IMG/VR virus record: IMGVR_UViG_3300030616_000017
Location: 64,001 to 128,000 of that record
DNA length: 64,000 nucleotides
Origin: a virus
Strand: one strand, 5' to 3'
Shown piece after piece: positions 4,068-36,084 of the stretch. Each line of letters starts with the position of its first letter. Within the stretch, counting starts at the first letter, position 1. Position numbers and translations under genes: made by a program. The notes under the pieces were generated by a model, which was not told the origin of the DNA, did no database searches, and saw only the letters and a list, made by a program, of their open reading frames with translations.

Positions 4068-4925
4068 TTATTTCTCCTTTTTTTGCTTTAAAAATAATTC
4101 CCTGTCAATTATTGCTTTTTCCAACGATAAATATTTTTCATCTTTTATTAGCTGTTTGAAAAAGCGTATATTATATATAATATCCGAAGTTTGATCAAAA
4201 GTCAATTCAGCAAGTAAATTATCTGCTAATTTTCCTTCAGGCTTCGTCTCAAGCCCCTTATCCCCAGAGTATCTCACGTTATTGATACCTGCCATTATGG
4301 GGCTGCTGGTATCTATAGTTTCTATGAAAGAAGAATCTCTATAAAAAGAAAATTCATAAGGAAGAGCGCAGCCCAACAGATGATGCGGTTTCTTTTTATT
4401 TAGGATTTTCTTAGTAGATAACTGATAAACAAATCTTTGACGGGCTTTTACCAATTTTTCATCTTTGGAGAAATTGTCGCCGAATTGTTCCAAATAACAA
4501 GGAAGGCCAAAAGTTATAGCAATTTTATCCGCGTGTTCACTCATAAATCTATAGCATTCAAATAACTCAGTCCAAGTGCTTCCTTGCACCACGCCTATAG
4601 CTTTGCCTGGTAAATTAGGATATTTCTTTGTAAAATCTTTAAACTGGTTTATGGTAAGATTTTTATCTCCCCAAGCATCGGGAACAATATATTCTGTAGG
4701 TTTTAGTTTCTTAATCCAATAAGCAAAACGGTCCGCTTCGAAACTTTCTCCTAATTCAAAAAGACTATTATCTAATATAACTCGCCTACCCTCTAAAAGA
4801 GAGTCCTCAAAAAAAGAATAATAAGAAGGGTGTTCTTCAAAAAGATGAACGAGGGCATAGTCATAATCATTGAATATTTTGCTAATGTCTAATAGTTCTA
4901 AAGGAACTTCGTGTGCTACTTCCAT
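4068..4925 (-). CDS. TGT-fold transglycosylase-like protein (DpdA-like)
   Basis: ILDNS, VPD, GVVQG, HHLLG, IDTSSP motifs resemble the TGT barrel; embedded in the que cluster. Confidence 0.7.
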   Translation of the reverse strand: MEVAHEVPLELLDISKIFNDYDYALVHLFEEHPSYYSFFEDSLLEGRRVILDNSLFELGESFEADRFAYWIKKLKPTEYIVPDAWGDKNLTINQFKDFTKKYPNLPGKAIGVVQGSTWTELFECYRFMSEHADKIAITFGLPCYLEQFGDNFSKDEKLVKARQRFVYQLSTKKILNKKKPHHLLGCALPYEFSFYRDSSFIETIDTSSPIMAGINNVRYSGDKGLETKPEGKLADNLLAELTFDQTSDIIYNIRFFKQLIKDEKYLSLEKAIIDRELFLKQKKEK

Positions 4926-24179: not shown

Positions 24180-26486
24180 ATGGTGGAGAAGTTTACGTTC
24201 AAGCAGAACATAAGTGAAGAAATATTTGAACAAAAATATAATCTGTATAATCAAGCAACTGTAGAAGATGTCATGGAGAGCGTTGCTGAAGAAGTGGCTT
24301 TAGCAGAAGAAACAAAAGAAGATGTGGAAAAATGGAAAAGTGTTTTTTATGATGAGTTAATAAGTACGCGATTAATCCCTGCAGGCCGTATTCTTGCGAA
24401 TGCAAGACCTTTTTCCACCATGAAAAATTACAACAATTGTTTTACCATTGATGTAGAAGATAATATGGAGGGAATTTATCAATCCATCTATGAAGATGCT
24501 ATGATAAGTAGAACAGGAGGAGGAGTAGGGTTTGATATTTCTAAATTACGCCCCAAAAATTCTCCTCTTTCTAAGTTACAGGGGGCTGTCAGTTCTGGTC
24601 CTATGTCTTTTCTGCGTATTTTTAACGAAAGTGCTAAAATTATTCAGACAGGGGGTTATAGAAGAAGTGCTCATATAGCCCTTATGGATATTTCTCACCC
24701 AGATATTGAAGAATTCATTACTGCTAAAAGAGGAGATATAAATAAAGAGTTTACTCAGTTTAATATATCTGTAAAAATACCAGACGCTTTTATGAAAGCG
24801 GTAAAAGATGATGCAGATTGGGATTTAGAGTTTGAAGGAACGGTTTATAAAACAGTCAAAGCCCGCCATTTATACAAGCTTCTTTCTGATAACGCTTTTA
24901 TGCACAATGAACCCGGTGTATTTTATTCTGATACCGTTGAAAAGTATAATAACGGCTGGTGGGCATTTAAACTTGATCGTGTTAATCCCTGTGGCGAGAT
25001 CGTAATGCCTCCTTATTCACTCTGTTGTTTGAGCGCGGTTAATTTATCTCAATTTGTAAGAAACCCTTTCGAAAAGGAAGCCGCTTTTGATTACAAAGCT
25101 TATGCGGAAACAGTCCGAGTAGGAATTAGATTTTTAGATAATGTGTTGGAGCGCACAGATTATCCCCTTGAGCGAATTGAAGAGTTTTCAAAGGAATGGA
25201 GAAGAATAGGTTTAGGTATTACAGGCTTAGGAGATGCCTTTGCTATGCTAGGAATAAAGTATGGCAGTAAAGAATCTAAAATACTAGCTGAAGCGATTGC
25301 AGAAACGCATATGGTAGAGTCTTATACTACCAGTGTAGAGCTTGCTAAAGAAAAAGGGCCTTTTTTAGCTTGTGATAAGAAAAAGCTATCTCAAAGCGCC
25401 TTCATTACAAACAGACTTCCTGAAAGCTTGCAGAAGAAAATAGCAAAAGTGGGTTTAAGGAATATCGCTCTTAATACAATTGCACCTACCGGCACCATTT
25501 CTTTTTCTATAGGGCAGAACTGCAGTAGTGGAGTAGAACCCATCTTTTCTCTTCAGTATGATAGAAATATCAGAACAGGAAGAGGGGACGAAACAAGAAC
25601 AGAAACAGTGTATGATTATGCTTGGTTGAAATATATAGAGCATCTAGGAGAAAATCATTTAGAGTTTAATGGAGATGTTCCTGAGTTTTTTAATACGACG
25701 CTAAATATTGATCCTTATGACGCTATTGATATCCAAGCTATTTGGCAAACGTATATTGATCACTCTATCTCCAAAACTCTCAATTTACCCAAAGGAACTA
25801 AAAAAGCAGATTATGATAAACTTTTTGAGTATGCTTACGAAAAAGGTCTTAAAGGGTTTACAACATTTAATCCTGAAGGTTCTATGAAGGGCGTGCTAGA
25901 ATATAACGAAGCGAAAGAAGAGCAGGTAGATGAATTCGGCCGTCCGCTTACTATTAATAGAACTAATGCTCCAAAGCGCCCTAAAGAGCTACAATGTGAT
26001 ATGCATCAAATCGTAGTGAATAAAGAAAAACATTTGGTGTTAATAGGAAGATTAGACGATGGGTCTATTTATGAAGTATTTGTTACTCCTAATACCGACA
26101 ACCAAATTGACATAGGAACATATAAAAAAGGCCTGCTGAGAAAAGTAAAGAAAGGGCATTATCAGTTGGTTGTCGTGAATGGAGAAGAGAAGAAGATTAT
26201 TGAAGATATTGGAAAACAGTTTAATGAACTTTATGGCTCCCTCTCTCGTTTTATATCTATGGGGCTAAGGCATGGAATTGATCTTCAGTTTGTAATTACA
26301 CAGCTTCAAAAAGATACTTCTTTTGCTTCATTTGAAAAAGCTGTCGCAAGAGTGCTTAAAAAATATCTGAGAGAAGGAGAGAAGGTAAAAATCTCAGAGG
26401 CATGCCCCGTGTGTGATTCAACTAATCTCTTTTTCAAAGAAGGCTGTATGACTTGTGCTGATTGTGGGTGGTCAAAATGCAGTTAG
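24180..26486 (+). CDS. nrdJ: class II (B12-dependent) ribonucleotide reductase
   Basis: PAGR, NCF, NPCGE, IAPTGT, C-terminal EGC..CGWSKC; no small subunit gene in the window. Confidence 0.93.
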   Translation: MVEKFTFKQNISEEIFEQKYNLYNQATVEDVMESVAEEVALAEETKEDVEKWKSVFYDELISTRLIPAGRILANARPFSTMKNYNNCFTIDVEDNMEGIYQSIYEDAMISRTGGGVGFDISKLRPKNSPLSKLQGAVSSGPMSFLRIFNESAKIIQTGGYRRSAHIALMDISHPDIEEFITAKRGDINKEFTQFNISVKIPDAFMKAVKDDADWDLEFEGTVYKTVKARHLYKLLSDNAFMHNEPGVFYSDTVEKYNNGWWAFKLDRVNPCGEIVMPPYSLCCLSAVNLSQFVRNPFEKEAAFDYKAYAETVRVGIRFLDNVLERTDYPLERIEEFSKEWRRIGLGITGLGDAFAMLGIKYGSKESKILAEAIAETHMVESYTTSVELAKEKGPFLACDKKKLSQSAFITNRLPESLQKKIAKVGLRNIALNTIAPTGTISFSIGQNCSSGVEPIFSLQYDRNIRTGRGDETRTETVYDYAWLKYIEHLGENHLEFNGDVPEFFNTTLNIDPYDAIDIQAIWQTYIDHSISKTLNLPKGTKKADYDKLFEYAYEKGLKGFTTFNPEGSMKGVLEYNEAKEEQVDEFGRPLTINRTNAPKRPKELQCDMHQIVVNKEKHLVLIGRLDDGSIYEVFVTPNTDNQIDIGTYKKGLLRKVKKGHYQLVVVNGEEKKIIEDIGKQFNELYGSLSRFISMGLRHGIDLQFVITQLQKDTSFASFEKAVARVLKKYLREGEKVKISEACPVCDSTNLFFKEGCMTCADCGWSKCS

Positions 26487-26559
26487 TTTTTAAGATATTA
26501 GCTACTAATATAAAAATGGTAGACATTGTAGATCGGGATAATTTTTATTGACTCATTTT

Positions 26560-26588
26560 AATACCCCCTTCGTGGAGGTATTTTTTTT
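26560..26588 (+). terminator. terminator-like hairpin in the permease leader
   Basis: AATACCCCC/GGAGGTATT stem plus T run. Confidence 0.6.
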
Positions 26589-26615
26589 GGGTAAAAACAA
26601 CTATAGGAGGTTGGA

Positions 26616-27827
26616 ATGAAACTTTTCACAGAAACATGGAAACAAAAGATGCAGGATATCATTGTAGGTATTCAGTATCTTTTCGTAGCGGCAGGAGCAA
26701 CAATTCTTGTTCCTCTGTTAACAGGTATTCCTGTATCAGTATGCGTAGTGACAGCTGGTATAGGGACTCTTATTTTTCACTTCATTACGGGTAAGGGAGT
26801 ACCTGTTCTTCTTTCTTCATCGTTTGCATTTATTGCGCCGATTGTGGCTGTAAAAGAACTATATGGTTTGCCTTTTGCATACGGAGGAGTTATTGTAGCT
26901 GGTTTATTGTACTTACTGTTTGCAGCTCTTATCTATTTTGTTGGGTTAGAGTTTATTAAAAAACTATTTCCCACCCCTGTGACAGCAACGATGGTAATTC
27001 TAATCGGTTTAATTTTAGCTCCTGTTGCGATTTCAAGTGCTTCACAAAACTGGATTATTGCTTTGATTACTCTTGCTGCTGGAGCTGCTATTAAAGTTGT
27101 GTGGGATAATAAATTCATTGGCTCATTAGCTATAATTGGAGCAATGGCTGTAGGATATCTTGTTTCAATAGCAGCAGGAATTGTAGATGTAAGCGCTGTT
27201 CAAGCAGCTGCGCTTGTAGGTGTTCCTGAATTTCAATTACCTCAATTTAATGCAAACGCTATTATGATTATTGCTCCGATTGCTATTGTAACATTTCTAG
27301 AACATTTTGCAGATATTTCCGCAGTGAGTAAAGTAGTTGAAAAAGATTTTCTAAAAGATCCTGGTGTACATAAAACATTGATAGGCGATGGTATAGCAAC
27401 AGCAATTGCTGGTTGTTTAGGAGGTTGTCCTAATACCACGTATTCAGAAAATATAGGGGCATTAGAGATTACAGGAGTTAAGAGAGCTAGCGTACTAAGA
27501 ATAACAGCTATAGCTTTAATCGTGGTAGGGTTTCTTCCTAAGATTGCATACCTTATTCATTCTATTCCTGCTCCTGTTGTGGGAGGAATCAGCATTCTTC
27601 TTTTCGGTCTTATCTCAGCAAATGGAGTTAAAAACCTAGTACAAGAACAAATTGATCTCAAAGATCATAAGAACCTCTTTATTATAGCGTCCATGTTAAT
27701 TGTTGGTGCTGGAGGCTCAGTTATTGAAATAGGTTCAGTTACATTTTCCAGCTTAGCTCTTGCAGCTCTTGTAGGTATAGTGATGAACGTAGCGTTCAAT
27801 TGGAAAACTTTTTTCAAAAAAAGTTAA
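26616..27827 (+). CDS. NCS2 nucleobase permease (uracil/xanthine, UraA-like)
   Basis: SSFAF, EH..D, GDG, PNTTYSENIG signature; many TM segments. Confidence 0.93.
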   Translation: MKLFTETWKQKMQDIIVGIQYLFVAAGATILVPLLTGIPVSVCVVTAGIGTLIFHFITGKGVPVLLSSSFAFIAPIVAVKELYGLPFAYGGVIVAGLLYLLFAALIYFVGLEFIKKLFPTPVTATMVILIGLILAPVAISSASQNWIIALITLAAGAAIKVVWDNKFIGSLAIIGAMAVGYLVSIAAGIVDVSAVQAAALVGVPEFQLPQFNANAIMIIAPIAIVTFLEHFADISAVSKVVEKDFLKDPGVHKTLIGDGIATAIAGCLGGCPNTTYSENIGALEITGVKRASVLRITAIALIVVGFLPKIAYLIHSIPAPVVGGISILLFGLISANGVKNLVQEQIDLKDHKNLFIIASMLIVGAGGSVIEIGSVTFSSLALAALVGIVMNVAFNWKTFFKKS

Positions 27828-27873: not shown

Positions 27874-27978
27874 GGGGGAGAAAATGGATTCGACTGCTAC
27901 ACTGCTGAAGCGACGAAAGGCCCAAAGTAACGAAAGCTGAGGTGTAGCAGGACTCGGGTTCGATGCCCGACTCCTCCA
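27874..27978 (+). ncRNA. ssrA: miniature tmRNA (tRNA-like domain only)
   Basis: 5' GGGGGAG-AAAATGGATTCGAC; helix CTGCTACACT/GGTGTAGCAG; GAC-TCGGG TTCGATG CCCGA; acceptor with G3:U70 and A73. Confidence 0.85.
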
Positions 27979-27991
27979 AAATAAAAAATAT

Positions 27992-28081
27992 GGGCAAGTG
28001 GCGAAGCTGGTTGAAACGCATGAGACTTAAAATCTCATACCCAAGCGGTAAACATCGTGGGTTCGATCCCCACCTTGCCTA
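27992..28081 (+). tRNA. tRNA-Leu(TAA)
   Basis: Cloverleaf; TGAGA-CTTAAAA-TCTCA; long variable arm. Confidence 0.93.
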
Positions 28082-28085
28082 ATAT

Positions 28086-28159
28086 GGCACCTTAGCTCAG
28101 CTGGATAGAGCATGAGATTTCTAATCTCAGGGTCACAGGTTCGAATCCTGTAGGTGTCA
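28086..28159 (+). tRNA. tRNA-Arg(TCT)
   Basis: Cloverleaf; TGAGA-TTTCTAA-TCTCA. Confidence 0.95.
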
Positions 28160-28175
28160 TACTAATATAAAAAAT

Positions 28176-28248
28176 GGACCGTTAGCTCAGTCGGTAGAGC
28201 AACGCACTTTTAATGCGTAGGTCACAGGATCGTAGCCTGTACGGTTCA
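28176..28248 (+). tRNA. tRNA-Lys(TTT), atypical T-loop
   Basis: ACGCA-CTTTTAA-TGCGT; T-loop ATCGTAG. Confidence 0.9.
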
Positions 28249-28252
28249 CTAA

Positions 28253-28324
28253 GGTTTATTCGTATATTGGTTAGTACGCTGGATTGTCGATCCAGAAGGC
28301 GGGGTTCGATTCCCCGATAGACCG
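28253..28324 (+). tRNA. tRNA-Asp(GTC)
   Basis: CTGGA-TTGTCGA-TCCAG; G73. Confidence 0.92.
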
Positions 28325-28368
28325 TTTTTGTAAGAAATCTATATAGTTTTTTCTTACAAAATCTCTTT

Positions 28369-28442
28369 GCTCCCTTCGTCTAATCGGTTAGGATATCGCC
28401 CTTTCAAGGCGAAGATATCGGGTTCAAGTCCCGTAGGGAGTA
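28369..28442 (+). tRNA. tRNA-Glu(TTC)
   Basis: TCGCC-CTTTCAA-GGCGA. Confidence 0.93.
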
Positions 28443-28454
28443 AAACATTTTACT

Positions 28455-28486
28455 TTACTTTTTGGTAGAAAATGATTATATTATAT
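28455..28486 (+). promoter_or_regulatory. promoter for the ncRNA triplet/TerD/RNA ligase unit
   Basis: TTTACT..TTATATTATA consensus ending 2 nt before repeat 1. Confidence 0.65.
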
Positions 28487-28488
28487 AT

Positions 28489-28546
28489 GTAGGCAGAGGG
28501 AGTTCCTCTAAAAAACACGGTGAAAGTTTGAATACTCTCCGCCTAC
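28489..28546 (+). ncRNA. bulged-stem ncRNA, copy 1 (Y-RNA-like candidate)
   Basis: GTAGGC-AGA-GGGAGT-TCCT...ACTCTC-C-GCCTAC. Confidence 0.75.
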
Positions 28547-28561
28547 TTTATTGAAATTAAT

Positions 28562-28617
28562 ATGGCATAGAGGGTTCCTATACTATCAACTTTAAATTGA
28601 ATTCTACCCTCCGCCAT
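28562..28617 (+). ncRNA. bulged-stem ncRNA, copy 2
   Basis: ATGGC-ATA-GAGGGT-TCCT...ACCCTC-C-GCCAT. Confidence 0.75.
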
Positions 28618-28633
28618 TTTAATATGAGTAATT

Positions 28634-28723
28634 AAGGGCATAAGAAGTTCCTAATGTAAAGAATTTACAGGGCAACTCCTACGGGAGCAGGGCCCTGTGC
28701 CAACAAACTTACTTCTCGCCCTT
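28634..28723 (+). ncRNA. bulged-stem ncRNA, copy 3
   Basis: AAGGGC-ATA-AGAAGT-TCCT...ACTTCT-C-GCCCTT; internal C(UACG)G hairpin. Confidence 0.75.
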
Positions 28724-28750
28724 TTATTAACCTACCAAAAGGAGAATCAA

Positions 28751-30694
28751 ATGATTTCCACTCTACGTCTTTTTAATGGTATTATTATTCCCAACAAAGA
28801 AGTTCCTGAAGATACTAATTCAGTAATATGGCCTCATGAAAAGTCTTACGAACAGCTTACTAAAGAAACTCTCAAGAAAGGATACATTGTTGATAAGGCT
28901 ATCTATTTTAATCTTACTCCTGAAGGCTTAAAAGACTTTAACAAGGCTATGAAAGAAAAGCTTACTTTTCATCGAGATTGGAATAATAGCTTTTATAAGT
29001 CTTGGAATAAACTGGAAACTCTTTCAGATTTTGAATTGCGTTTAGACCAGCTTTTTCATTACTTTACTACGTATGGAGCCGAAGCTCTTGGAATAAAAGA
29101 TTCTTTTGTTTACCTCCCTAAAGGCAATACTTTTATGCCCCCTGTAAGTGAAGATTTTTCTTTTCTTTATATTCGTGGATTTGAAAGAGAAGAAATTCAG
29201 GAAAAGATTGTAGCTATGGTTGGTTCTGGAATTGCTCTAAAAGAAGAAACCATTGAAGATCTTCTTACTATTGTTATGGAATTTTCAAAGAAGCACATTT
29301 TCGACATCTTCTCTGTTTGCAAGAACAAGGAAGTGAAGGTTCGATTAGCAGAGTTATATGATTTTATTCCTAAAAATGTAGGAGAATTTCTTAGATACGT
29401 TATTTACAAGAATACAGGGAAGTCTCTTGTTATTAAGAATAAAGCTACAATTGACGCTATAAAGATAGGGAGAGATAGAAAAACTCCTTCTTATTTCTAT
29501 GCGTATAGAGATGCTTATGGGCTTGAAAGTCTTGCTAAAAACTTTTATCGGTATAAGCCTCTTCTTCTTGCTTTTCGGTCTGCATTCCCTGAACTAAAGC
29601 CACTGATTAATCAAGTAAGAAAACTTGCTGTAAAGTTCCATGAACCTATGAAAGAAGATTTTCTTAATACTGTTACCAAAAAAATCAAACAGAATGCTGT
29701 TCTTAATCTCACCACTTTAGAACAAGAACTCTTTAAGGCAAACACCTTTAGAAAAGTACGGTTGCTATATGCTCTTCAGAATCTGGAAAGCCAAACTGAA
29801 GATAAAATCTATAATATTCGGAACGGTAAACAGTATGTAACGAAAGCAAGTATGCCTCGATTTAAAAAAGAGGATGTTGCTTTTTTAGCTGATAAGGTCT
29901 ATTCTCATATTGTTGAAGATATTAAACCAAATGTAGAAGGTAAGACAGTTTTGGTTCATCCAAGACTTGCATATGCTCTTCCTTCTTCAGAAAAGAATTT
30001 TATAGGAAACTACCCTGTCAAGAGTAAGGTAGAATTCAACAGTACAAGAGACCTGATTATTGGTGTTCACTGGAAAAATCAAAAAAATAGAGTAGATCTA
30101 GATCTTTCTCTTCTTAGTCTTGATGGAACCAAGTTTGGATGGAATGGTCGTTATAGGGATGAAGGAATTCTTTTTTCAGGCGATGTGACTGATGCTCCTG
30201 GAGCAGGAGCTTCTGAGTTTTATTATTTCAAAGGTGTTAAAGACGGGATGTATTCAGTAGTTTTGAATTATTACAATTCTTATGGGGTAGAAGAAGAATG
30301 CCCTTTTGATATAATTATTGGGGCTTTTGATGGACAAGATATTAATAGGAATTTTATGTTACGCCCTGAAAATATTGTTTTTCAAGCCTCCTCATCTATC
30401 GGCCCTGAACAGATTAATCTGGGAATGGTGGTTATAGAGGGAGACAAAAAAGTATTTAGTATGATAGAGGGAAAGAGAGCTCGTGCTTCAGTGTCTGCTA
30501 ACGATGAACTCAATGCTGTATATTTGAATGCACTTAAATCTGAAACTGAAAATATTATATTTCTAACAGATGTGCTTACTGATGCTGGAGCTGTAGTAGT
30601 AGAAGATCGAGAAGATTCAGTTATTGATTTTGATCTTACTCCTACCTATATTCAGAAAGATACCATTATGTCAATGTTTACAAAGGAGAGGTAA
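28751..30694 (+). CDS. large helical protein with C-terminal TerD-like domain (possible TROVE/Ro-like)
   Basis: RBS AAGGAG and ATG at 28751; W..DLDLS..W..FSGD..GASEF TerD-like motif. The TROVE fold is inference. Confidence 0.6.
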   Translation: MISTLRLFNGIIIPNKEVPEDTNSVIWPHEKSYEQLTKETLKKGYIVDKAIYFNLTPEGLKDFNKAMKEKLTFHRDWNNSFYKSWNKLETLSDFELRLDQLFHYFTTYGAEALGIKDSFVYLPKGNTFMPPVSEDFSFLYIRGFEREEIQEKIVAMVGSGIALKEETIEDLLTIVMEFSKKHIFDIFSVCKNKEVKVRLAELYDFIPKNVGEFLRYVIYKNTGKSLVIKNKATIDAIKIGRDRKTPSYFYAYRDAYGLESLAKNFYRYKPLLLAFRSAFPELKPLINQVRKLAVKFHEPMKEDFLNTVTKKIKQNAVLNLTTLEQELFKANTFRKVRLLYALQNLESQTEDKIYNIRNGKQYVTKASMPRFKKEDVAFLADKVYSHIVEDIKPNVEGKTVLVHPRLAYALPSSEKNFIGNYPVKSKVEFNSTRDLIIGVHWKNQKNRVDLDLSLLSLDGTKFGWNGRYRDEGILFSGDVTDAPGAGASEFYYFKGVKDGMYSVVLNYYNSYGVEEECPFDIIIGAFDGQDINRNFMLRPENIVFQASSSIGPEQINLGMVVIEGDKKVFSMIEGKRARASVSANDELNAVYLNALKSETENIIFLTDVLTDAGAVVVEDREDSVIDFDLTPTYIQKDTIMSMFTKER

Positions 30695-30695
30695 A

Positions 30696-31808
30696 ATGAG
30701 AGACCTTGCTTATATTGCTAAAATTGAAAAGCTTGAACCCATTAAAGATAAGGATAGAATTGAACTCGCCACAGTAGCTAATTGGGAAGTAATTGTAGGA
30801 AAAGGAGAATATAAGGTTGGAGACCTTGTGGTGTATGTTGAGTATGATACTGTTCTTCCTGTCAAGCCCGAATTCGAGTTTCTAAGAAAAAGATGTTATT
30901 CAAAACTTTATGACGGGTTTAGAATTCGTAATATGTCAATGGCTGGTGTATTTTCTCAAGGAATTGTGTTTCCTCTCTCTATTCTCCCAAAGAGTGTTAA
31001 GATTGAGGAGGGAAGAAATGTTGCTAAAGAACTAGAAATTGTTCGATATGATCCAGAAGAGATACGAGAAAATAGAATGATTCATAATTCCAAGCCTAAA
31101 AATCCTCTTATGAGATTTAAGTGGTTTAGAAAACTTCGGAATAAATATTTTGGTAAAACTTCCTCTTATCCTTCTACAGTAAAGAAATCTGATGAAACAA
31201 ATATTCAGAAGCTTTTCAACGCGTACAAAGAAAATTATAATGATGTGAAGTTTTATGCTACGGAAAAAGTAGAAGGACAAGCAGCAACCTATGTGCTTAA
31301 ACGAGGTCGCTTTCACGTTTACTCCCACAATAAGAGTGTGCGGAACGATGGAAAAAACAATTGGTCAGCAACTGCTAAACTGTATGACATTGAAAAGAAG
31401 CTGCGTCAGTATAAAAGAAAACACGGAGTAGAGCTTGCAATCCAAGGAGAAATTGCGGGGCCGGGAATTCAAAAGAATATCTATGGGTTTGATACATTTA
31501 GATTTTTCGTATATAAAATCACTAATGTGAAAACAGGTGAAGCGTACAACTTCGTGGATTTAGTTAATCTTATTGTAAAGTTAGATCTATTTCTTTGTCC
31601 TCTTGTTTATACATCTATATATCTTAATGCGTTTGAAACCGTACAGGAAATTCTTGAGCATAGTAATGGAGATAGTGTATTAAGAAAGGATAAGAAGATT
31701 CCAAGAGAAGGGCTTGTATGGAGAGCTGTAGAAGATCAAAATATAGGGTTTAAAGCTAAGAGTCCGGTATACCTTGCAGCTTGGGATAAAAAAGATAAAA
31801 CTGAATAA
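30696..31808 (+). CDS. ATP-dependent RNA ligase, DRB0094 family
   Basis: N-terminal DRIELATV..W..GDLVVY..D; TEKVEG, QGEIAGPGIQKN, REGLV, FKAKS. Confidence 0.9.
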   Translation: MRDLAYIAKIEKLEPIKDKDRIELATVANWEVIVGKGEYKVGDLVVYVEYDTVLPVKPEFEFLRKRCYSKLYDGFRIRNMSMAGVFSQGIVFPLSILPKSVKIEEGRNVAKELEIVRYDPEEIRENRMIHNSKPKNPLMRFKWFRKLRNKYFGKTSSYPSTVKKSDETNIQKLFNAYKENYNDVKFYATEKVEGQAATYVLKRGRFHVYSHNKSVRNDGKNNWSATAKLYDIEKKLRQYKRKHGVELAIQGEIAGPGIQKNIYGFDTFRFFVYKITNVKTGEAYNFVDLVNLIVKLDLFLCPLVYTSIYLNAFETVQEILEHSNGDSVLRKDKKIPREGLVWRAVEDQNIGFKAKSPVYLAAWDKKDKTE

Positions 31809-32827: not shown

Positions 32828-32835
32828 TAGGTTTT

Positions 32836-32908
32836 TGAGGTATAGCTCAGTTGGCAGAGCGCTTGACTGTTAATCAAGATGTCGCAGGTTCAAGTCCTGC
32901 TACCTCAG
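32836..32908 (+). tRNA. tRNA-Asn(GTT)
   Basis: CTTGA-CTGTTAA-TCAAG. Confidence 0.95.
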
Positions 32909-32926
32909 ATATTTTAACAGAAAATT

Positions 32927-33017
32927 GGAAGGGTGACCGAGTCTGGCTTATGGTGATGCCCTGCTAAGGCATTGGGGGAAATAATTTCTTCTGAAGGTTC
33001 AAATCCTTCTCCTTCCG
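32927..33017 (+). tRNA. tRNA-Ser(GCT)
   Basis: ATGCC-CTGCTAA-GGCAT; long variable arm; G73. Confidence 0.92.
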
Positions 33018-33024
33018 TTTTTAC

Positions 33025-33096
33025 GCCTCTCTAGCTCAACGGTAGAGCAACGCTCTTGTAAAGCGTAGGTTATCTGTTCGAATCAGATGAGGGGCT
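33025..33096 (+). tRNA. tRNA-Thr(TGT)
   Basis: ACGCT-CTTGTAA-AGCGT. Confidence 0.93.
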
Positions 33097-33098
33097 AT

Positions 33099-33172
33099 GT
33101 GGCTGTAGCTCAGTAGGCTAGAGCGTCTGTCTGTGGAACAGAAGGCCGAGGGTTCAATTCTCTCCAGCCACC
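33099..33172 (+). tRNA. tRNA-His(GTG)
   Basis: TCTGT-CTGTGGA-ACAGA; C73; T rather than G at position -1. Confidence 0.92.
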
Positions 33173-33177
33173 TTTAT

Positions 33178-33250
33178 AGGTCTGTAATTCAATTGGCAGA
33201 ATACTGGTCTCCAAATCCAAAAGTTGAGGGTTCGATTCCTTCCGGGCCTG
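33178..33250 (+). tRNA. tRNA-Trp(CCA)
   Basis: CTCCAAA loop; imperfect anticodon stem. Confidence 0.88.
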
Positions 33251-33258
33251 TATATTAT

Positions 33259-33339
33259 AGAGTCTAGCGCTAAGGTAGCAAACTGGACTTGAAATCCAGG
33301 CCATGTGTATGCATGAGGGTTCGATTCCTTTAGGCTCTG
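33259..33339 (+). tRNA. tRNA-Ser(TGA), atypical D-arm
   Basis: CTGGA-CTTGAAA-TCCAG; variable arm CATG/CATG; G73. Confidence 0.8.
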
Positions 33340-33410
33340 TATAGTAAAAGGAGTAAAAGAATGAAAAGGAGAGCTGTTTTCTAACTACTTAAATAAAGGA
33401 GTTAGAAGCA

Positions 33411-33731
33411 ATGAGTAAAACGTATCGTAAGGTTATTAGTTTTAACGACGGCCAAACATCAGGAACTAAATGGGCTCAAAGACAAGCTAATAAGAAAGTT
33501 AGAAGAACTAAAGACGTTCCAAATGGTAGAGCTTATAAAAAGCTTTATGATAGTTGGAATATTAGAGACTTCAAAAGCAATTTCTACACAGAAAGAGAAG
33601 CAAGAGAGTATATAGAAGATTCTTGGTTTAGTACTTGGAAGGGGGATTTCCACAAAGTATGGAAGTATAAAGGCTTTCAAAAGAAAAAGCTTTTTTCCAG
33701 AACTTCTATACGTAAGCTTGAAAACGAATGA
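33411..33731 (+). CDS. hypothetical basic protein
   Basis: RBS AAGGAG lies within a hairpin. Confidence 0.65.
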   Translation: MSKTYRKVISFNDGQTSGTKWAQRQANKKVRRTKDVPNGRAYKKLYDSWNIRDFKSNFYTEREAREYIEDSWFSTWKGDFHKVWKYKGFQKKKLFSRTSIRKLENE

Positions 33732-33752
33732 GTTTTTGATTATATTATAATT

Positions 33753-33897
33753 GTAAGTTCAGTCAACCAACAGGGGGTCATGTCCTTGTAGAAGGTGTTA
33801 CTGAAATATACGTGACGACGAAAGTAGATGCTGCAGAATCAAAATCTTTGGCGGTATTTTGGTAGAGGAGGACTTTTAATCCTCCTCCTGAACTTAC
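33753..33897 (+). ncRNA. unknown structured ncRNA
   Basis: 10-bp closing stem GTAAGTTCAG/CTGAACTTAC, several internal helices, promoter at 33718-33749. Confidence 0.7.
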
Positions 33898-33907
33898 TTT
33901 TTATTAT

Positions 33908-33981
33908 GGGGTTGCATGTACCAAGGCTGGCGATTTTCCTTTGCAAGGAAGATGAGCTCGGTTCAATTCCGAGGGGCTCCA
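33908..33981 (+). tRNA. tRNA-Ala(TGC), atypical D-arm
   Basis: TTTCC-TTTGCAA-GGAAG; G3:U70; A73. Confidence 0.75.
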
Positions 33982-33987
33982 CTTTTT

Positions 33988-34062
33988 CCCTCCATACCCA
34001 AGTTGGTTTAAGGGAACGGATTGCAAACCCGTTATTCGCAAGTTCGAATCTTGCTGGGGGGT
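33988..34062 (+). tRNA. tRNA-Cys(GCA)
   Basis: ACGGA-TTGCAAA-CCCGT; U73. Confidence 0.9.
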
Positions 34063-34081
34063 TTAGAAAAAGGAGAAATAA

Positions 34082-34795
34082 ATGAGTGTATTTGTATGTG
34101 GTGATACGCATCATGATTATGACATAGAGAAATTAAGTATAGAAAGATGGCCCGAACAAGAACAACTTACACTTGATGACTTTCTTATTCAGCTTGGCGA
34201 TTTTGGTGTGCCTTGGAGCAATGATAGAGAAAACCCCTCTGATTTGAGAATGTTTCAATGGTGGGCAAGTAGACCTTGGACTACTTTAGTTATCCCAGGA
34301 AACCATGAGAATTATGATCGTCTTGCTTTATATCCGGAAATAGAGATGTTTGGAGGCCCAGTGCAAAGAATGGCCAATAATGTTTATATTCTTCAAAGAG
34401 GGTATGTATATGAAGTAGATGGTAAAAAAATATTTGCAATGAGCGGAGGGTTTTCAATCGATAAGGATTGGAGAACAGAGTTTGTTAGTTGGTGGAGTCA
34501 AGAAATGCCAACATATCAGGAAATTCTTGATGCAAGAAAAAGATTAGAAGAAGCAGGTTGTGATGTTGATTATGTTCTTACTCACACCTGCTCTAATATT
34601 ACATTTGAAAAACTTTTTCTTCAGATTGATCTTATGCCTGAAAAAAATAAAAGAAATCCTCTAAGGCATTTTCTCGATTGGGTAGAAGAAAATGTAAAGT
34701 TTAAGGAATGGCATTTTGGTCATTTCCATGACGATGTACAGGTAGATGAAAAGCATTTTCTTCATTACAATAAACCGCCTGTACGGTTAATATAA
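34082..34795 (+). CDS. calcineurin-like metallophosphoesterase
   Basis: GDTH, GDFG, GNHE, THT, GHFH. Confidence 0.9.
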   Translation: MSVFVCGDTHHDYDIEKLSIERWPEQEQLTLDDFLIQLGDFGVPWSNDRENPSDLRMFQWWASRPWTTLVIPGNHENYDRLALYPEIEMFGGPVQRMANNVYILQRGYVYEVDGKKIFAMSGGFSIDKDWRTEFVSWWSQEMPTYQEILDARKRLEEAGCDVDYVLTHTCSNITFEKLFLQIDLMPEKNKRNPLRHFLDWVEENVKFKEWHFGHFHDDVQVDEKHFLHYNKPPVRLI

Positions 34796-34804
34796 AAAGT
34801 ATAT

Positions 34805-34878
34805 GCCCCGGTAGACCAATTGGAAGAGTTAGCAGATTTAGAATCTGTACAGTGTGAGTTCAAATCTCACTCGGGGCA
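34805..34878 (+). tRNA. tRNA-Leu(TAG), short variable arm
   Basis: GCAGA-TTTAGAA-TCTGT; A73. Confidence 0.88.
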
Positions 34879-34910
34879 ATATCTGAAAAATAAAGGAGAA
34901 AAAAAAATAA

Positions 34911-35510
34911 ATGATTGATCCTCCAAAAAAGGAATATCGAGGAAAACTACCCGATGGACAAGTTAAGACTTATTTAGCGTGCTTGCGGCACATAGAAAGT
35001 GGAGTATGGTTTTCGAAAATAGGGACGACAAGCGACCAAGATGCAGAAGATCGTTTAACGTATTGGGGTCTATACCCTGATAGAAAAGGGTACTTAGAAT
35101 TTACAGATATAAAAATTATCTGGTCTATAAAATTCACAAAAAGATATTGGGCAGAAGCTCTGGAGCAACTCTATTTAGGCCTCTCCCCAAAAATTAATAT
35201 TGCAGCCATAGCTAACGAAGTCGGTAAGTGTAATATAGAACATGATAGATATGGACCTGGATATCTTAATGGATATAGCGAGTTTAGGTATCTTAGTGAA
35301 GAAGAGCTAAAGGATGCACGAGATACAGGGTATGCGATAAAACAACGTATGTTTGGAATAAAGGAAGTAGGAGATCAAGAGAGGGAGAAAGTAGTCAGTG
35401 GTGAGGAAGCGCAAAGAATAATGAAAGTATTACAAGACTATGATGTTCATTCGATTGAAGCTTTACACAGCCGTATTAATACGCATTATCCTCGCCGTTG
35501 GTATCACTAA
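34911..35510 (+). CDS. GIY-YIG/T5orf172-like protein (possible homing endonuclease)
   Basis: TYL...FSKIGTT..R..E pattern; free-standing in the tRNA cluster. Confidence 0.45.
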   Translation: MIDPPKKEYRGKLPDGQVKTYLACLRHIESGVWFSKIGTTSDQDAEDRLTYWGLYPDRKGYLEFTDIKIIWSIKFTKRYWAEALEQLYLGLSPKINIAAIANEVGKCNIEHDRYGPGYLNGYSEFRYLSEEELKDARDTGYAIKQRMFGIKEVGDQEREKVVSGEEAQRIMKVLQDYDVHSIEALHSRINTHYPRRWYH

Positions 35511-35517
35511 TATAAAT

Positions 35518-35602
35518 AGCGGGGTAGAGTAGAGGTCAAACTCGGTGGTCTCATAAGCCACTGCACGAAAGTGCTCGTTGGGTTCAATTCCCACCCCCGT
35601 TA
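35518..35602 (+). tRNA. tRNA-Met(CAT), initiator-like, long variable arm
   Basis: AGCGGGG acceptor; A11:U24; GTGGT-CTCATAA-GCCAC; GCAC-GAAA-GTGC arm. Confidence 0.8.
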
Positions 35603-35619
35603 TACCTTTTTATATCAAT

Positions 35620-35694
35620 GCGCCTGTGGTGTTTAACGGATTAGCATGACAGCCTTCCAAGCTGACGGTACGGGTTCGAATCCCGTCAGGCGCT
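35620..35694 (+). tRNA. tRNA-Gly(TCC)
   Basis: CAGC-CTTCCAA-GCTG; U73. Confidence 0.93.
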
Positions 35695-35703
35695 CTTATA
35701 ATA

Positions 35704-35794
35704 AGGAGATGATCTTCACGGGGGACTGTAAATCCCTTCTGCGTTAACAATTGTGAAGTGGCTGCAGGGTTGGGTTCGATTCCCTCATCTCCCA
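35704..35794 (+). tRNA. tRNA-Tyr(GTA) lacking a D-arm
   Basis: GGAGAT/ATCTCC acceptor; GGGGA-CTGTAAA-TCCCT; GGG-TTCGATT-CCC; only ~9 nt in the D region. Confidence 0.72.
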
Positions 35795-35905
35795 TTTTTT
35801 TTGAAAAAGTTTAATTTTTACTTGAATTTTAGAAAAAACTTCGTTATATTATAAATATGAATAAGATAATAAGAGGGAGTAAGGAATCGGTTAACTTAAA
35901 CATTT

Positions 35906-35976
35906 AGGGGTATCGTCTAACGGTAAGACGCAGGGTTTTGGTCCCTGAGATAGGAGTTCGATTCTTCTTACCCCTA
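35906..35976 (+). tRNA. tRNA-Gln(TTG)
   Basis: CAGGG-TTTTGGT-CCCTG. Confidence 0.92.
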
Positions 35977-35982
35977 TACTAT

Positions 35983-36056
35983 CTAGATGTGGTGTTTAAC
36001 GGTAGCACGCCTGGTTTGGGACCAGGATGGTGGAGGTTCAAATCCTTCCATCTAGA
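35983..36056 (+). tRNA. tRNA-Pro(TGG)
   Basis: CCTGG-TTTGGGA-CCAGG; C1-G72. Confidence 0.92.
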
Positions 36057-36084
36057 CTTTTTAAAAAACTTAAAGGAGCTTAAA

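Follow-up and report, generated by a model that had tools for sequence, protein, structure and literature searches.

What are three tandem bulged hairpins doing in the transfer RNA (tRNA) cluster of a phage, directly in front of a protein gene? The question is raised by positions 28455 to 31808 of the window, i.e., of the 64,000-nucleotide (nt) stretch of DNA analyzed here, which corresponds to positions 64,001 to 128,000 of the viral record IMGVR_UViG_3300030616_000017 (147 kb in total and complete by CheckV). A first-pass annotation, made from the letters and their open reading frames (ORFs), had described the region as a candidate RNA repair particle of three bulged-stem RNAs, a protein with a TerD domain and an RNA ligase, and had likened it to Ro60 with its Y RNAs. 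On balance, our data make it fairly probable that the locus encodes an RNA-protein module, that is, a particle like that of Ro60 and Y RNAs with an apparently unrelated protein. The pairing of the RNAs with the protein is strongly supported; binding, the release of discrete RNAs by processing, and the biological role are what we infer.

The three hairpins (28489-28546, 28561-28618, and 28634-28723, all on the + strand) share a basal structure, here called the handle. An outer helix closing with G-C/C-G is followed by a 3-nt A-N-A bulge, a 6-bp helix ending in G-C/U-A, the sequence UCCU, and an apical region that varies; on the way back, the 3′ strand has U-AC, a single unpaired C opposite the A-N-A bulge, and GC. 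The copies read GUAGGC-AGA-GGGAGU-UCCU...ACUCUC-C-GCCUAC, AUGGC-AUA-GAGGGU-UCCU...ACCCUC-C-GCCAU, and AAGGGC-AUA-AGAAGU-UCCU...ACUUCU-C-GCCCUU. All three fold as predicted, hairpin 1 with -18.2 kcal/mol (z = -2.45), hairpin 2 with z = -2.6, and hairpin 3 with -33 kcal/mol (z = -3.75). A covariance model (R1), built from 71 copies of which two came from the window, matched hairpin 1 with 51.0 bits (E = 1.2e-10), hairpin 2 with 56.9 bits (E = 3.3e-12), and hairpin 3 with 42.8 bits (E = 1.4e-8), and exactly these three were matched both in the window and in the whole 147-kb genome. The description of three tandem bulged-stem elements with compensatory changes, given in the first-pass annotation, is thus borne out by sequence, fold, R1 matches, and covariation. 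An Rfam scan of the region gave no match for the three hairpins (YrlA model, none at E ≤ 1). The apical regions differ: hairpin 1 carries 30 nt with no stable insert, hairpin 2 an anticodon-arm-like hairpin, UCAA[CUUUAAA]UUGA, and hairpin 3 a 62-nt insert that consists of a GC-rich nested hairpin and then GUGCCAAC. As for the 3-nt bulge, a kink turn was rejected by reading, since the pairs that follow the bulge are covarying Watson-Crick pairs and not sheared G-A pairs.

The handle recurs wherever the protein gene does, with few exceptions. We surveyed 80 IMG/VR loci with a homologue of the protein and 52 loci from bacterial and archaeal genomes; neighbor counts given below refer to 133 loci. 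A simple pattern of the 5′ half of the handle was present in 73 of the 80 viral loci, always on the strand of the gene, and R1 found 209 copies in the viral and 56 in the bacterial and archaeal loci, with no copy on the other strand and with nearly all at most 400 nt from the gene. The surroundings of homologues, where the first-pass annotation had expected the motif to recur, held the handle in all viral loci in which DNA upstream of the gene is preserved; the R1-negative viral loci are solely those that lost the 5′ end of the gene and the DNA upstream of it at a contig end, and the handle-less exceptions among loci with upstream DNA are a few cellular ones. In five complete host genomes (42 Mb), R1 gave three matches, each directly upstream of the gene. 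The arrays comprise one to eight copies, usually one to four, at distances of 5 to 20 nt.

The helices of the handle are maintained by compensatory change. In the 71-copy alignment, 95% of the cells pair, and double-sided changes number 228 compared to 74 in shuffles. Covariation is seen in 8 of 12 pairs and in both handle helices, and no variation is seen in the bulges, GU/AC, UCCU, or the U that precedes AC. Because these 71 copies were selected for pairing, a test on half-sites gives the fairer picture: of 160 distinct sequences matching the 5′ half, taken irrespective of pairing, 136 were closed by a perfect 6-bp complement plus 1 nt plus GC (85%), compared to 5% after shuffling and 12.5% in displaced windows. 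Motif, covariation, and a near-exclusive linkage to the gene are therefore properties of the family as observed. We found no description of this RNA-protein pair in the literature or the Rfam families searched, with the coverage of the literature being incomplete.

Two loci of cultured organisms are worth describing. In Marinicella meishanensis NBU2979 (L127), the protein gene is present and R1 gives no match within 6 kb, even unfiltered; the RNA has been lost there or has diverged too far. In cyanophage S-CRM01 (HQ615693; L137), the module lies inside a tRNA cluster, with two hairpins upstream of g174 and one 7 nt past its stop codon (L137 positions 2747-2878 and 4828-4881). The minus-strand ORF g173c of this phage (132391-132537) overlaps the second hairpin and the end of the first and is likely a spurious call.

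What the handles carry at their tips is often tRNA-like. Across the family, the apical regions comprise short AU-rich loops, GC-rich hairpin inserts (copy 3 of the window is of this type, and similar inserts occur in sister loci), permuted tRNA-like domains, and look-alikes of anticodon arms. Long sister copies contain a T-arm, a closed acceptor-like hairpin, and a D-arm, in the order of a permuted tRNA-like domain, and these copies match the Rfam YrlA model with 35 to 49.5 bits (E down to 4e-8), which is below its gathering score of 69. A T-arm-like hairpin is found in 45 of 109 distinct arrays. The anticodon-arm format (a stem of ≥4 bp and a 7-nt N-U-NNN-R-N loop) is present in 20 of 114 short apical regions, compared to 6.0 ± 2.5 in shuffled sequences. 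If judged against the real anticodon loops of tRNAs in the same loci, an exact anticodon loop sits on a stem in 14 of 123 apical regions, compared to 1.3 ± 1.1 after shuffling; the loops mimicked are those of tRNAs for Asn (five times), Lys (three times), Ser (twice), Gln, Glu, Tyr, and Leu. Some copies (L038:2750-2823, L030:2713-2785, and L032:2665-2736) have two apical hairpins. In the second of these, a 4- to 6-bp stem is capped by CUUUUAA, a loop identical to the anticodon loop of tRNA-Lys(UUU). This tRNA is the classic target of the anticodon nuclease PrrC.

The partner protein of 647 amino acids is encoded at 28751-30694 (+ strand), behind a Shine-Dalgarno sequence AAAGGAG at 28738-28744 (+ strand). 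More than 1,130 relatives of about 630 amino acids share 37 to 46% identity with it over 99 to 100% of the length, and an exhaustive search gave 1,945 representatives at the 50% identity level, none of which is named. Searches of Pfam, PHROGs, NCBIfam, PADLOC, and PDB sequences returned nothing usable; the sole matches were a chance-level match to I42, a weak one to a PHROG without known function, and a weak one of the TerD part to NF041916 (E = 9e-4). The AlphaFold model (mean predicted local distance difference test [pLDDT], 84.6; predicted template modeling score, 0.82) has an N-terminal alpha/beta part, helical repeats at about 146 to 396, a beta-sandwich at 426 to 576, and C-terminal helices. 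In this model, residues 426 to 576 have the fold of the TerD family (2qz7, Z = 9.2; 2kxt, Z = 9.0; 3ibz, Foldseek probability of 1.0), although the Pfam TerD profile PF02342 gave no match at E ≤ 0.1; the helical protein with a TerD-like C terminus that the first-pass annotation had read from the sequence is thus supported by the model. The motifs DLDxS and SGD...G in this domain resemble the calcium-site motifs of TerD. Unlike members of the TerD family, the domain is fused to a helical part of 425 residues and belongs to a gene that is linked to RNAs and does not lie in a ter operon. Residues 1 to 425, if modeled alone (pLDDT, 75.7), gave as best matches the CID/RPR-like helical domains (Z = 6.5 to 6.6; residues 178 to 299), and residues 301 to 396 matched generic helical repeats.

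In the ESM Atlas, the RING proteins of the MXAN_6230/SCO0854 type (NCBIfam NF041916) align to the 647-amino-acid protein over 552 residues (template modeling score of 0.64 by query). The helical plus TerD body seems to be common to both, in line with the weak match of the TerD part mentioned above, but the MXAN_6230/SCO0854 proteins are larger (about 850 to 1,000 amino acids), contain a RING finger, and come from bacteria (mostly Actinomycetota). They are not known to have an RNA partner. The sharing hints that the body serves for sensing or binding and can be combined with other effectors.

How, then, does the module compare to Ro60 and its RNAs? As with Ro60 (Rsr) and YrlA/YrlB (RF02553), one protein gene is tightly linked to one or several structured RNAs on the same strand, and the RNAs combine a basal bulged helix with an apical module that is, in many copies, a permuted tRNA-like domain. 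Ro60/Y systems, too, are sometimes found beside RtcB, as in the Salmonella locus named rsr-yrlBA-rtcBA (Chen et al. 2014, PMC4201824), and in phages, as in Thermus phage phiLo (PMC12135203). Unlike Ro60, the family described here has no detectable TROVE domain and a TerD fold where Ro60 has a vWA domain with a MIDAS site. The handle, with its 3-nt A-N-A bulge in the 5′ strand, the single C in the 3′ strand, and the following UCCU, is unlike that of Y RNAs, as are the arrays of up to eight copies; moreover, some copies mimic anticodon arms, a feature not found for YrlA in PMC4201824. By this comparison, the module resembles Ro60/YrlA/YrlB in its logic but would not belong to that group: TROVE is missing by sequence, vWA is missing, the handle is another one, and the copies of the window have no Rfam match. 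Of the non-canonical Ro/Y-like module proposed in the first-pass annotation, the conserved RNA-protein pair and the Y-RNA-like build of the RNAs have therefore held up, and the relationship of the protein to Ro60 has not.

In our model, the helical and TerD-containing protein would bind the invariant handle in the manner of Ro60 on the basal helix of Y RNAs and would thereby display the differing apical modules; the RNAs may be cut out of the transcript or act within it. Since copies of tRNA parts occur across the family, the particle most likely acts on tRNA-directed enzymes or damaged tRNA, with which the apical mimics would engage for recruiting, trapping, or sensing. In this phage, the particle would work alongside a coupled nick-sealing ligase and the phage's own set of tRNAs. 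The first-pass annotation had proposed that the RNAs tether or decoy against host anticodon nucleases; such a role may be hinted at, indirectly, by the exact copies of anticodon loops in sister RNAs. A more far-reaching version is conceivable, although we would sooner bet against it: the family might constitute a new class of ribonucleoproteins with a protein unrelated to Ro60, in which exchangeable handle RNAs with tRNA-copying tips serve phages and cells as programmable decoys, sensors, or repair platforms against tRNA-targeting nucleases.

Several observations weigh against the particle. The tRNA elbow (T-arm plus D-arm) is absent from all three copies of the window, and the loop of copy 2, CUUUAAA, is not a real anticodon loop of the set, although the hairpin has the anticodon-arm format. 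The N-terminal part of the protein has no recognizable RNA-binding fold in Foldseek searches of the PDB, structural searches, or the ESM Atlas. RNA repair genes are neighbors in only about 10% of the loci, and the enrichment statistics take related phages as independent, which overstates their significance. Finally, there is no space for a promoter between hairpin 3 and the gene of the 647-amino-acid protein, and terminators are absent after the hairpins, where the T fraction is 0.36 compared to 0.29 in the background. Indeed, intrinsic terminators were considered as an identity of the hairpins themselves and rejected, as a terminator scan found none in the array and the U-tracts that follow are weak. 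With neither terminators nor promoter space, one transcript most likely carries the RNAs and the gene(s), and the RNAs are then an mRNA leader unless they are processed.

Where this transcript begins can be narrowed down by comparison. A promoter-like site, TTTACT-17-TATATT (28454-28482, + strand), ends 6 nt before hairpin 1. The first-pass annotation had called it a consensus promoter, which overstated the case: it matches in 9 of 12 positions, promoter-like matches are not enriched in the region, and the site alone is not above chance. In several sister loci, strong promoters (TTGACA-17-TAnnnT) stand 4 to 13 nt before the first hairpin; the site of the window is weaker than these but has the same geometry. 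A single transcript probably starts at about 28489 and comprises the three small RNAs, the gene of the partner protein, and the ligase gene.

Co-transcription would suit a cis-acting role of the hairpins, which the first-pass annotation had named as an alternative. This explanation survives better than the other alternatives, although we regard it as unlikely. The hairpins would be operators in the 5′ leader, through which the protein represses or stabilizes its own mRNA, and free small RNAs would not exist. The position of the array directly upstream of the gene in most loci (here it ends 27 nt before the ATG) speaks for this, as do the missing terminator after the hairpins and the missing promoter before the gene. 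However, arrays reach up to eight copies, the apical modules are elaborate mimics of tRNA for which an operator has no need, the Shine-Dalgarno sequence is not sequestered by hairpin 3 as far as can be read from the sequence, and copies stand downstream of the gene in L010, L020, L050, L051, L066, L076, and cyanophage S-CRM01. Furthermore, the Y RNAs of Salmonella also lie within the rsr-yrlBA-rtcBA operon, so that co-transcription is compatible with free RNAs.

Less probable still is a highly diverged but true Ro60, in which vWA was replaced by TerD and whose RNAs would be diverged YrlA/YrlB; the locus would then be an ordinary Ro/Y system that sequence models no longer reach. The likeness of the tRNA-like inserts of sister RNAs to YrlA, the common plan of a helical domain followed by a C-terminal domain of the metal-binding type, and the presence of the Ro60 of phage phiLo (9l5y_B) among the longest structural alignments to the N-terminal domain (210 residues) are in its favor. 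That alignment, which bears on the ring of HEAT-like repeats typical of Ro60, has a Z score of 5.4 and a root mean square deviation of 6.0, which is within the noise for helical repeats, and it is the best that any Ro60 structure reached; in the Foldseek lists for the whole protein and for residues 1 to 425, Ro60 is absent. Nor was there a TROVE signal of the kind expected by the first-pass annotation: PF05731 did not match the 647-amino-acid protein at E ≤ 0.1, no TROVE was found anywhere in the phage genome, and hhalign of the family profile against one genuine TROVE plus vWA_Ro60 sequence gave a probability of 0.2. The handle also differs from the RNA side of the Ro60 system. Bacterial Y RNAs bear the Rsr-binding motif GNCGAAN0-1G near the 5′ end (PMC4201824), and neither this motif nor GGUCCGA (PMC4201824) corresponds to the handle; when read by eye and not by a pattern search, neither the three copies nor the consensus of the handle, GC-ANA-NNNNGU-UCCU, showed GNCGAA. 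Moreover, a metagenome-assembled genome of Bythopirellula sp. (OZ245849, about 4.92 Mb; L101/L136) encodes a family member and, about 2.5 kb further downstream on the other strand, a genuine TROVE plus vWA_Ro60 protein, whose gene lies beside an array of 13 tRNA genes. Ro60 and the TerD-type protein therefore coexist in one element and are not simple substitutes for each other.

That the hairpins are merely processing or stability elements of the tRNA cluster transcript, with no specific tie to the protein, is highly improbable, for although they lie co-oriented inside the cluster, as they do in S-CRM01 and other phages, 59 of the 80 viral loci have hairpins in the absence of any tRNA gene within 3 kb, no further copy of the motif is found among the 18 tRNAs of the phage, and the motif tracks the gene in bacteria and archaea.

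Returning to the particle, we ask which neighbors belong to it. The location inside the tRNA cluster noted in the first-pass annotation was confirmed: 18 tRNA genes, co-oriented with the hairpins, surround the module, five of them (Leu, Arg, Lys, Asp, and Glu; 27991-28443, + strand) directly 5′ of it and thirteen 3′ of it (32835-36057, + strand), the latter with small ORFs and a metallophosphoesterase gene in between. Across the family, tRNA genes are present within 3 kb in 21 of the 80 viral loci, often as arrays.

The RNA ligase encoded downstream (30696-31808, + strand; 370 amino acids) is of the ATP-dependent Rnl5 type (DraRnl/NgrRnl). It has the PHA02142 OB fold (PF21189, E = 1e-27) and the RNA_ligase domain (PF09414, E = 2e-16), matches TIGR02306 (DRB0094 type) with 151.0 bits at a cutoff of 151.15 and NgrRnl of Naegleria with E = 2e-23, and contains EKVEG, which we read as the lysine motif I. 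With the Rnl5 ligases of Deinococcus (DraRnl) and Naegleria (NgrRnl; 5cot) it shares the N-terminal OB fold and the nucleotidyltransferase domain; the likeness concerns the ligase only, and the ligase is not conserved as a part of the module. Its ATG at 30696 is one base past the stop codon of the 647-amino-acid ORF and its Shine-Dalgarno sequence lies inside the upstream gene, so that the two genes are probably translationally coupled. Type and close coupling of the ligase thus agree with the first-pass annotation, but its assignment as a partner in the module had to be given up: an Rnl5 ligase is present in 1 of 133 loci, that of this phage, and has no counterpart in the other 132. It is a lineage-specific passenger of the module. 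RtcB is encoded in 5 of the 133 loci, a CCA-adding enzyme in 5, and an SPFH/Band 7 protein in 3, and a conserved protein neighbor was not found across the 133 loci, which indicates that the RNA-protein pair is self-contained. Apparent antisense "clusters" turned out to be shadow ORFs inside the gene and were discarded as neighbors.

The closest described particle on this plan is that of Ro60 and Y RNAs, whose function in bacteria is still poorly understood. If our reading is true, a second such particle with an apparently unrelated protein would mean that displaying mimics of tRNA on a protein is a solution that recurs, and the module would offer new access to the fights between phages and hosts over tRNA integrity. 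About 2,000 family members, counted at 50% identity, are spread over phages, bacteria, and archaea; they often lie in phage tRNA arrays and sometimes beside RtcB. Cultured systems open to tests are the cyanophages S-CRM01 and S-CBWM1, Ktedonobacter racemifer, and Geminocystis sp. CENA526. The handle RNAs would also supply Rfam with a family it lacks, and ORF calls that are likely spurious, g173c of S-CRM01 among them, would be corrected.

Three further features of the window lie close to the module. The first RNA in the tRNA cluster, at 27874-27981 (+ strand), is 108 nt long, stands behind a TTGAAA-17-TATATT site, and was not called by ARAGORN. It matches only the tRNA-like ends and the P2 helix of the Rfam model for transfer-messenger RNA (tmRNA), with 59.9 bits in a large and 46.9 bits in a small search (gathering score of 47), and shows a T-arm and an acceptor stem (GGGGGAG/CUCCUCC) that includes a G3-U70 pair; pseudoknots are absent, and a tag frame is not obvious. 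This may be a minimal tmRNA-like RNA of the phage. Among the tRNA genes, at 34082-34795 (+ strand), lies a gene for a calcineurin-like metallophosphoesterase (Pfam Metallophos; PHROG 1649), which could be an enzyme for RNA end healing that partners the Rnl5 ligase. At 24180-27827 (+ strand) are encoded the large subunit of ribonucleotide reductase, with a TSCPD domain, and then a protein of the xanthine/uracil permease family; the nucleobase permease strikes us as an unusual cargo for a phage.

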